A stretch of 64,000 nt of DNA from Dictyostelium discoideum. Its lineage: Eukaryota. The stretch covers positions 2,624,001-2,688,000 of the forward strand of contig CM000150.2 in the NCBI GenBank assembly GCA_000004695.1, in the 5' to 3' direction. Below are positions 5,488-6,345 of this stretch, piece after piece; position 1 is the first letter of the stretch, and each line of letters opens with the position of its first letter. The position numbers and the translations under genes are program-made. The notes beneath the pieces were generated by a model. That model saw nothing but the letters and a program-made list of their open reading frames with translations. It had not been told where the DNA came from and searched no databases.

Positions 5488-6345
5488 ATGTTTTATAAAT
5501 ATAATGCTTGGGATCCCAAGTTAATTATAGGACAGATTTTATCAATACAATGTTTATATTATATATTATTAGCAGGTATATTATACCTGTTAGATTCAAT
5601 GTTTTCATCATCCTTATCATTAGAACAAATGTTTGAATATCAATCAATCAATACTCATTCTCAAAGTGGTAGAGTTGTTATGACTGCTTTTTTAATTAAT
5701 TCATTATTTGGGTAAATATTAATAATAGCAATAACCACGTAAATATAATTATAGAAACTAATTCAATTATTATTATTATTATTATTATTATTATTATTAT
5801 TATTATTATTATTATTATTATTATTATTATTATTATTATTATTATTATTATTATTATTATTATTATTTAGTTCATTTTGTTTAAAATATATAGTGGAACG
5901 ATCAAAGAAATGTTTAGATCATTCAGCTACAGTTACATTTATACATTTTATTATAGTTTGGATTGTTTCAGGATTCCCAAAGACAGTAGTTTGGTGGGCA
6001 ATTCAATTGATTGGTATGGTTATAATGGCAATGATTGGTGAATATTTATGTATGCGTAAAGAGTTAATGGATATACCATTACAAAGAGGAAAAGATTTAG
6101 ATTCAACTCCAATCACAATTCCACCATCACCTCATACTTCATCACCAATTATGAATCCAAAAAATAATAGTAATGGAAATAGTGGAAGTAATAATAATAA
6201 TAATAATATCTTTAGTAATAGTATAAATAGTAGTGGTGGTAGCAGTAGTAGTATCAACAGTATTGGAAATAGTAATAATCCCTACCAACCAATCGAATTG
6301 GAGATTTTAACACATCAAGATAAACAGGATGAACATGATGATTGA
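5488..6345 (+). CDS. SYS1 homolog (Golgi integral membrane protein, Arl3/ARFRP1 receptor); 2 exons, 232 aa with N/S-rich C-terminal tail
   Basis: Exons 5488-5711 and 5871-6345, with intron 5712-5870 (GTAAAT..TTTAG). The exon 1 protein MFYKYNAWDPKLIIGQILSIQCLYYILLAGILYLLDSMFSSSLSLEQMFEY...GRVVMTAFLINSLFG joins GSFCLKYIVERSKKCLDHSATVTFIHF...WWAIQLIGMVIMAMIGEYLCMRKELMDIPL. This aligns with my recall of human SYS1 (WDPLLILSQIV...SLDQMFD...GRLSMMSFILNAL...RRGKQCLDF...AVIGEYLCMRTELKEIPL). Only the acceptor AG at 5869-5870 keeps the frame. The AG at 5892-5893 breaks it. Confidence 0.8.
5766..5868 (+). repeat. (ATT)n microsatellite, about 34 units, forming most of the SYS1 intron
   Basis: A perfect ATT array. 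The functional acceptor (TATTTAG at 5864-5870) is the 3' edge of the array. Confidence 0.9.

Follow-up and report, generated by a model that had tools for sequence, protein, structure and literature searches.

An (ATT)34 repeat of variable length ahead of a conserved acceptor in the SYS1 intron of Dictyostelium discoideum

The SYS1 gene and its intron

Near the beginning of a 64,000-nucleotide (nt) stretch of the Dictyostelium discoideum AX4 genome (GenBank assembly GCA_000004695.1, contig CM000150.2, positions 2,624,001 to 2,688,000 of the forward strand; hereafter the window, to which all coordinates refer) lies SYS1, a single-intron gene whose intron carries a perfect trinucleotide microsatellite directly ahead of the 3' splice site (Table 1). 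The G+C content of the window is 22.6%. An earlier note on this DNA had named the gene, placed an (ATT)34 array in its intron and proposed that the last repeat unit serves as the acceptor, so that the splice site would be embedded in a hypermutable repeat. The identity of the gene is as the note had it. The 232-amino-acid (aa) spliced product is identical to XP_645912.1 / EAL72034.1 / UniProt Q55E69 (SYS1_DICDI, D. discoideum AX4), annotated as 'Protein SYS1 homolog' (DDB_G0269368), and it matches the Pfam family SYS1 (PF09801) over residues 4-145 and profile positions 2-144 of 144, unbroken across the junction, with E=2.9e-51 and a score of 173.9 bits (cut-off 22.3). The gene model and its intron are therefore existing annotation and already known. 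A search of the PDB with the SYS1 sequence gave no match.

The array itself was recovered by Tandem Repeats Finder (TRF) as 34.0 copies of period 3 with the consensus ATT and 100% matches, and it ends at 5867, one nucleotide ahead of the acceptor AG; what follows it is a T and then the AG. The interval 5712-5960 holds nine AGs, and with the donor at 5712 only the AG that ends at 5870 preserves the frame, giving the 232-aa protein; the AG at 5892-5893 breaks it. Both points are as previously claimed. Use of the latter AG with the same donor leads to a product of 123 aa. The splice restores 15 residues, G75-C89 (GSFCLKYIVERSKKC), and in an alignment of 14 sequences comprising dictyostelid, plant and other/protist homologues this segment holds five invariant residues (E84, R85, K87, K88 and C89) together with the near-invariant L79, Y81, I82 and V83. 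An exhaustive scan of the locus found 34 GT-AG pairs that keep the open reading frame (ORF), including the annotated pair; the other 33 would all remove conserved coding sequence, and their donors (such as GTATAT, GTGGTA, GTAGAG and GTTGTT) are poor.

The frame of exon 2 is also open upstream across the entire array (5755-6342), where (TTA)34 reads as poly-leucine, and formal GT-AG pairs joining 5674 or 5677 to 5754 give in-frame proteins with 34 extra leucines. A single ATT-to-AGT change within the array would create an in-frame acceptor upstream of the annotated one.

The SYS1 intron in other Dictyostelium assemblies

We compared the SYS1 locus in seven further assemblies: two of D. discoideum, two of D. 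cf. discoideum, and one each of D. citrinum, D. firmibasis and D. purpureum. The codon position and phase of the intron are the same in all seven, and each has a GTAAA donor and a TTTAG, TATTAG or ATATAG acceptor. The 3' ATT array, on the other hand, is polymorphic in copy number among the five D. discoideum and cf. discoideum assemblies, with 34 perfect units in AX4, 17 units in GCA_054859385 (D. discoideum; interrupted by ATC, ACT and GTT), 12 units in GCA_054859355 (D. discoideum), 6 units in GCA_054859235 (cf. discoideum; plus a ~35-unit (AAT) array adjoining the donor) and ~30 units in GCA_054859205 (cf. discoideum). D. citrinum has essentially no 3' array (~2 units) and ~40 AAT units at the 5' edge of the intron; D. 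firmibasis has none, its 5' part being AAT-rich and imperfect; and D. purpureum has a 74-nt intron that is array-free. In three taxa, (AAT)n thus stands beside the SYS1 donor in place of a long 3' ATT array. The strain comparison that the earlier note had suggested therefore yields repeat lengths from 0 to ~34 units across assemblies.

Because array-free species have an acceptor of this type at the same exon boundary, the SYS1 acceptor AG is ancestral and older than the repeat, and is not itself a repeat unit. The idea that the last repeat unit provides the acceptor is contradicted both by this sharing and by the array stopping at 5867. Of the proposed hypermutability, the variability in length between strains is borne out; the word itself holds only in a relative sense, given an overall indel rate in mutation accumulation of 4.9e-11 per site per generation (PMC7466956).

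Similar arrays in neighbouring introns

Gene models for the window were built with a dynamic program that uses codon usage and splice sites, and were then submitted to an exact protein look-up. Eleven of the 16 model proteins tested are exact matches to the AX4 annotation: Rab7A, SYS1, CPSF5, DDB_G0269372 (160 aa), AATF/TRAUB (DDB_G0270496), a 395-aa DEAD-box protein (eIF4A-like), PepD, DDB_G0270500, GrlK, DDB_G0269376 and coronin-B. The models comprise 23 introns, an approximate total of which 17 fall in genes verified by the look-up; a 3182-aa kinase model was outside the look-up. Long AAT/ATT arrays occupy the 3' part of 5 of the 23 introns, in good agreement with the earlier estimate of 5 of about 25. 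Besides SYS1, they are found in both introns of AATF, in intron 2 of the eIF4A-like gene and in the intron of DDB_G0269372, so the four introns to which the earlier note had extended its observation all carry arrays. That the acceptor sits at the edge of the repeat is true of only three of the five: the three ATT arrays abut the AG, and the two A-rich AAT arrays stop 7-10 nt short of it. The label 'Tim17-like' that had been given to DDB_G0269372 is weak, with a Pfam Tim17 match of 20.3 bits that falls below the cut-off of 32.7. In the intron of this gene, TTATTAACTTTTTAAACTTTTT is flanked by two mutually complementary arrays, (ATT)n on its upstream and (AAT)n on its downstream side.

If arrays were free to sit anywhere in an intron, their placement at the 3' end would be non-random (Fisher combined p=6e-4). 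Other strains have arrays beside the donor as well, so that either of the two spacers can be occupied, with donor, branch region and acceptor intact. The intron of GrlK ends in the same 12-mer, ATTATTATTTAG, as that of SYS1 and has 3.7 units only; judging from this match, it probably shows what an unexpanded seed looks like. The earlier note had also read the repeats as part of a polypyrimidine region, which does not fit this organism well, two of the five arrays being A-rich AAT and several introns ending in A-runs. Judging from these intron ends, Dictyostelium acceptors evidently do without a pyrimidine tract. Long runs of A directly ahead of the AG (AAAAAAAAAAAG) occur in the minus-strand introns 9993-10082, 30522-30622 and 42805-42930. 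Rfam detected no RNA family in any intron of the window.

RNA evidence is available for two of the genes with arrays. A 1600-nt Logan contig (L008, from SRR24091725) contains an uninterrupted 521-aa AATF ORF and carries the junctions 13064|13225 and 13657|13813 exactly as modelled, and two others (L010 and L011, from SRR17156088 and SRR17156089) carry junctions of the eIF4A-like gene, including 16623|16791. Since the AATF introns are missing from the transcript contig, acceptors that abut an array are used in vivo. The proposed check of junctions in RNA is thereby answered for AATF and the eIF4A-like gene; for SYS1 no transcript was found: looking up its locus or transcript by exact protein gave no return, and when JGI metagenome contigs were searched with a 30-mer across the spliced junction (one degenerate base), there were 0 matches.

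The other array-bearing introns are polymorphic too. In AATF intron 1, AX4 has 32 units and one cf. discoideum strain ~45, and two other D. discoideum strains are array-free, with introns of 80 and 83 nt that end in AACTAATTATTTTATTTTTATTATAG. AATF intron 2 has 27, 27 and ~68 units in D. discoideum strains; in cf. discoideum the array is at the 5' edge in one strain and absent in the other, and D. firmibasis has an independent array of ~45 units. In the intron of the 160-aa gene, the expanded tract alternates between strains, being either the upstream ATT or the downstream AAT array. Strain differences in the array-free introns of Rab7A and CPSF5 consist mainly of homopolymer length. We also considered whether orientation follows a rule, with ATT (AG-safe under transitions) downstream of the branch and AAT upstream, and dropped the idea, as three loci fit and two do not.

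Branch motif, AG-free zone and spacer length

Introns of D. discoideum are 89% A+T with a median length of 103 nt, and ACTAAT is their commonest branch-like hexamer, present in 18.7% of 17,300 introns (Irimia & Roy 2008, PMC2483917). In SYS1, the last AG ahead of the acceptor is at 5753-5754, which leaves an AG-free stretch of ~114 nt (5755-5868) with ACTAAT exactly at its 5' boundary. To place this in context we collected 108 intron alleles, namely the 23 AX4 introns and their homologues in other strains, 84 of which have a CTAAY no closer than 8 nt to the 3' end. In 83 of these 84, the first AG located 7 nt or more past CTAAY is the acceptor itself. With arrays removed, the AX4 introns have no AG in 345 nt downstream of CTAAY vs. 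32 in 1207 nt upstream (Poisson p=1e-4); for all alleles, which are non-independent, the numbers are 1 in 2222 nt and 178 in 7264 nt.

The sequence context thus gives some preference, which we hold with hesitation, to the ACTAAT 109 nt upstream as the putative SYS1 branch site. The earlier note had supposed that changes in repeat length move the branch region. Because ACTAAT precedes the array, it is the spacer that would change instead, between about 22 and 109 nt, and branch site and acceptor would stay where they are. The resulting distances are unusual. From the branch-like A to the acceptor the median is 32 nt (16-61) in array-free introns vs. 82 nt (40-203) where an array intervenes; SYS1 and likewise AATF intron 1 have 109 nt, and intron 2 of the eIF4A-like gene has 102 nt. 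RNA structure as an explanation of the long SYS1 spacer was ruled out: in prediction the intron RNA has less structure than its shuffled controls, folding worse than 198 of 200 (z=+2.33), so folding would not shorten the distance between ACTAAT and the AG. The complementary ATT and AAT arrays of the 160-aa gene intron likewise gave no significant predicted hairpin (z=-1.22).

A doubtful, though possible, alternative is that the branch site lies inside the array. (AUU)n would offer UUAU, a minimal UnA-type site, every 3 nt, together with a U-rich tract, ~20-35 nt from the AG; the conserved ACTAAT would then be redundant in long-array alleles, and the repeat would tentatively be a length-independent, self-similar 3' splice-site module. 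Against the range of 16-61 nt in array-free introns, the 109 nt of SYS1 is indeed an outlier, and the lack of structure in the intron (z=+2.3) means that no fold draws ACTAAT toward the AG. Moreover, AX4 AATF intron 2 has no CTAAY upstream of its array and is nevertheless correctly spliced, and the intron of the 160-aa gene has none either. However, (ATT)n has no match to YURAY or CTAAY, since none of its A residues follows a purine, and ACTAAT is found precisely where the AG-free zone begins. In addition, AAACTAAT(T) directly upstream of the ATT tract, and with it ACTAAT, is kept in seven D. discoideum-group alleles, those of D. citrinum and D. firmibasis among them and also the long-array ones, although the long-array strains are too closely related for a loss to be expected; the D. 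purpureum SYS1 intron lacks ACTAAT.

Apparent intronic enrichment of A/T arrays

In the window, 15.8% of intron bases fall within perfect AAT/ATT arrays of 15 nt or more, compared with 1.3% of intergenic bases and 2.5% of exon bases; the arrays in exons are all AAT (Asn) on the sense strand. Noncoding DNA has seven long arrays, of which five lie in introns, although introns make up 11% of that DNA (p=3e-4). The five long intronic arrays are clustered in 5712-16790, and the longest array in the eight modelled introns beyond 17 kb is 15 nt; given this clustering, the enrichment may be a regional or small-sample effect. These numbers bear on a further alternative, in which the arrays are selected as tunable spacers whose length modulates splicing efficiency or expression between strains, as the (TG)m(T)n tract in intron 8 of human CFTR does. 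The ~12-fold array coverage of introns relative to intergenic DNA would be consistent with this, as would the non-random placement at the 3' end and the finding that given intron sites have undergone expansion repeatedly and independently in separate taxa. Nevertheless, we regard such selection as very unlikely, since length is erratic and unconserved (0 to ~68 units among very close strains), the location of the arrays alternates between the 5' and 3' spacers and their orientation between ATT and AAT, and the five introns are a small sample clustered in one window.

Other features of the window

Five models had no exact protein match (Table 1), and the reference annotation of these genes must differ from our models in a start codon or an intron. 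Intron 3 of Rab7A contains three blocks, TTTTAGTTTT..ACATATAAAAAAAAATAACGAGTTTTA, AAGTTGTTTGAATTTTCAAGAAAAAAAAA and GTGGCATATGATTTTTTTT, that are invariant in seven Dictyostelium assemblies (D. citrinum and D. firmibasis among them) and far more conserved than the other intron sequence examined; they have no Rfam match and could be an intronic non-coding RNA or a regulatory element. Upstream of Rab7A, within a long stretch devoid of genes, a large imperfect (ATT) array directly follows the donor-like CAAGTATGA. Near the end of the window, a tRNA gene adjoins retroelement-like ORFs, which presumably resemble the tRNA-targeted TRE retrotransposons of Dictyostelium.

Table 1 Coordinates of SYS1, of array-bearing introns and of other features in the window.
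Feature	Position	Strand	Description
SYS1 exon 1	5488..5711	+	ATG at 5488; terminal GG is the first two bases of Gly75
SYS1 intron	5712..5870	+	159 nt, 93% A+T, phase 2, GTAAAT...TTTAG, 3' end ATTATTTAG; 102-nt ATT array, TAG left before exon
ACTAAT branch-point-like motif	5757..5762	+	presumed branch A 5761, 109 nt to acceptor G
Perfect (ATT)34 microsatellite	5766..5867	+	AG-free; TRF
TAG with acceptor AG (5869-5870)	5868..5870	+	outside the repeat array
SYS1 exon 2	5871..6345	+	stop codon TGA at 6343-6345
DDB_G0269372 (160 aa) intron	8562..8806	+	(TTA)7.7 at 8624-8646; AAT/ATA at 8681-8796, 116 nt (TRF), 10 nt left
AATF/TRAUB intron 1	13065..13224	+	(TAT)32 at 13127-13222, 96 nt, abuts AG
AATF intron 2	13658..13812	+	(ATT)27 at 13728-13808, 81 nt, then TTAG
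DEAD-box (eIF4A-like) intron 2	16624..16790	+	(AAT)19.7 at 16723-16781, 59 nt; 9 nt left
Imperfect (ATT) array	2394..2639		~81 units (TRF, 84% matches); perfect 37-unit core 2394-2504
Rab7A intron 3	3708..4074		three invariant blocks
Model without exact protein match	9520..12041	-	776 aa
Model without exact protein match	20089..21514	+	449 aa
Model without exact protein match	21714..25590	-	1259-aa P-type ATPase
Model without exact protein match	31370..33301	+	643 aa
Model without exact protein match	52041..53561	+	506 aa
Retroelement-like ORFs	61505..62834	-	198 + 229 aa
tRNA gene	63279..63350	+	Rfam, 56.3 bits

Discussion

We interpret the SYS1 intron as an ordinary, annotated U2-type intron in which an A/T-only spacer ahead of an ancestral TTTAG acceptor was expanded by slippage to (ATT)34, and we assign a probability of roughly 80% to this interpretation. 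The seed would have been an ATT-rich tract ahead of the acceptor (...ATTATTATTTAG), from which replication slippage probably generated the perfect array between ACTAAT and the acceptor, and the array is likely to be a largely neutral filler that varies between strains. As a repeat made of A and T only, and thus without AG, it leaves the annotated acceptor as the first AG past the branch region at any repeat length; such a repeat is the only type of insertion able to lengthen the AG-free zone without bringing in a competing AG. The same process has probably acted independently in neighbouring introns, in other strains and in other species. The acceptor appears to be 'at the repeat edge' because an A/T-only array cannot hold an AG, and since this exclusion explains its position, no site-defining role for the repeat is needed.

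Several points weigh against this interpretation. The candidate branch distance of 109 nt is far beyond that of array-free introns, and the ~12-fold difference in array coverage between introns and intergenic DNA is not obviously predicted by pure neutrality. Assembly errors may affect the lengths of arrays taken from the newer draft assemblies, and the alleles of related strains are non-independent observations. Finally, as no SYS1 transcript was found, the support for this junction comes from frame, conservation and annotation. That the annotated splice is wrong, the AG at 5892-5893 being joined to a donor at 5666 (GTGGTA) or 5669 (GTAGAG), or some other pair being used, can nevertheless be practically dismissed: such pairs formally keep an ORF of 209-210 aa, but their donors are poor, while every assembly keeps both GTAAAT at 5712 and the acceptor. 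They would also remove ~22 residues (GRVVMTAFLINSLFGSFCLKYI...) on which dictyostelids and plants agree, and would break the contiguous Pfam SYS1 match.

A broader possibility, which we consider unlikely, is that Dictyostelium tolerates or exploits AG-free A/T-microsatellite spacers of 100-200 nt, scanning from ACTAAT to the first AG, with A/T arrays being enriched in introns as a result. If so, the enrichment would arise either because no transcribed place other than the two spacers can expand without harm, or because array length tunes the efficiency of splicing between strains. The alleles of AATF intron 1 (0 vs. 32 vs. ~45 units) would then constitute a test series for distance limits in a eukaryote that is neither a yeast nor a metazoan.

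For annotation the impact is small, as the reference model of SYS1 is already correct and A/T microsatellites are expected in Dictyostelium introns. Gene finders should, however, not distrust acceptors at repeat edges, which are explained by expansion of an AG-free spacer before a pre-existing site. Together, the homologous introns represent a natural allelic series of branch-to-acceptor distances from ~20 to >150 nt, usable for the study of 3' splice-site choice.

Like SYS1, typical D. discoideum introns are short, GT-AG and ~90% A+T, with an ACTAAT branch-like motif. Such introns and a genome rich in simple sequence repeats (SSRs) are reportedly a subject of the work of Eichinger and colleagues from 2005. 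CFTR intron 8 has a polymorphic (TG)m(T)n tract at the acceptor of exon 9, the length of which demonstrably changes exon skipping; in SYS1, too, a simple repeat of polymorphic length stands just ahead of the 3' splice site, although this likeness is one of sequence alone and SYS1, with its single intron, has no alternative exon to skip. SSRs account for 11-14% of the D. discoideum genome (Williams et al. 2022, PMC9234386; PMC7466956). A full-text literature search found no description of trinucleotide arrays that fill the spacer between branch and acceptor, or of their polymorphism between strains. The detail of spacer expansion may therefore be undescribed, yet it is a corollary of known genome features and of an ordinary, already known kind. 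In Saccharomyces cerevisiae, long distances between branch and 3' splice site require RNA structure (Meyer et al. 2011, PMC3239191). The SYS1 branch-like motif is similarly more than 100 nt from its acceptor, with the difference that the introns of SYS1 (z=+2.33) and the 160-aa gene (z=-1.22) have no significant predicted structure. A further parallel is provided by the AG-dinucleotide exclusion zones with distant branch points described for human exons (Gooding et al. 2006, PMC1431707). The SYS1 zone belongs to an amoebozoan and derives from a microsatellite instead of a long polypyrimidine tract, and its membership in this class is judged from the sequence pattern only; what it has in common with the human zones is a long AG-free stretch, a branch motif at the 5' boundary and an acceptor that is the first AG.

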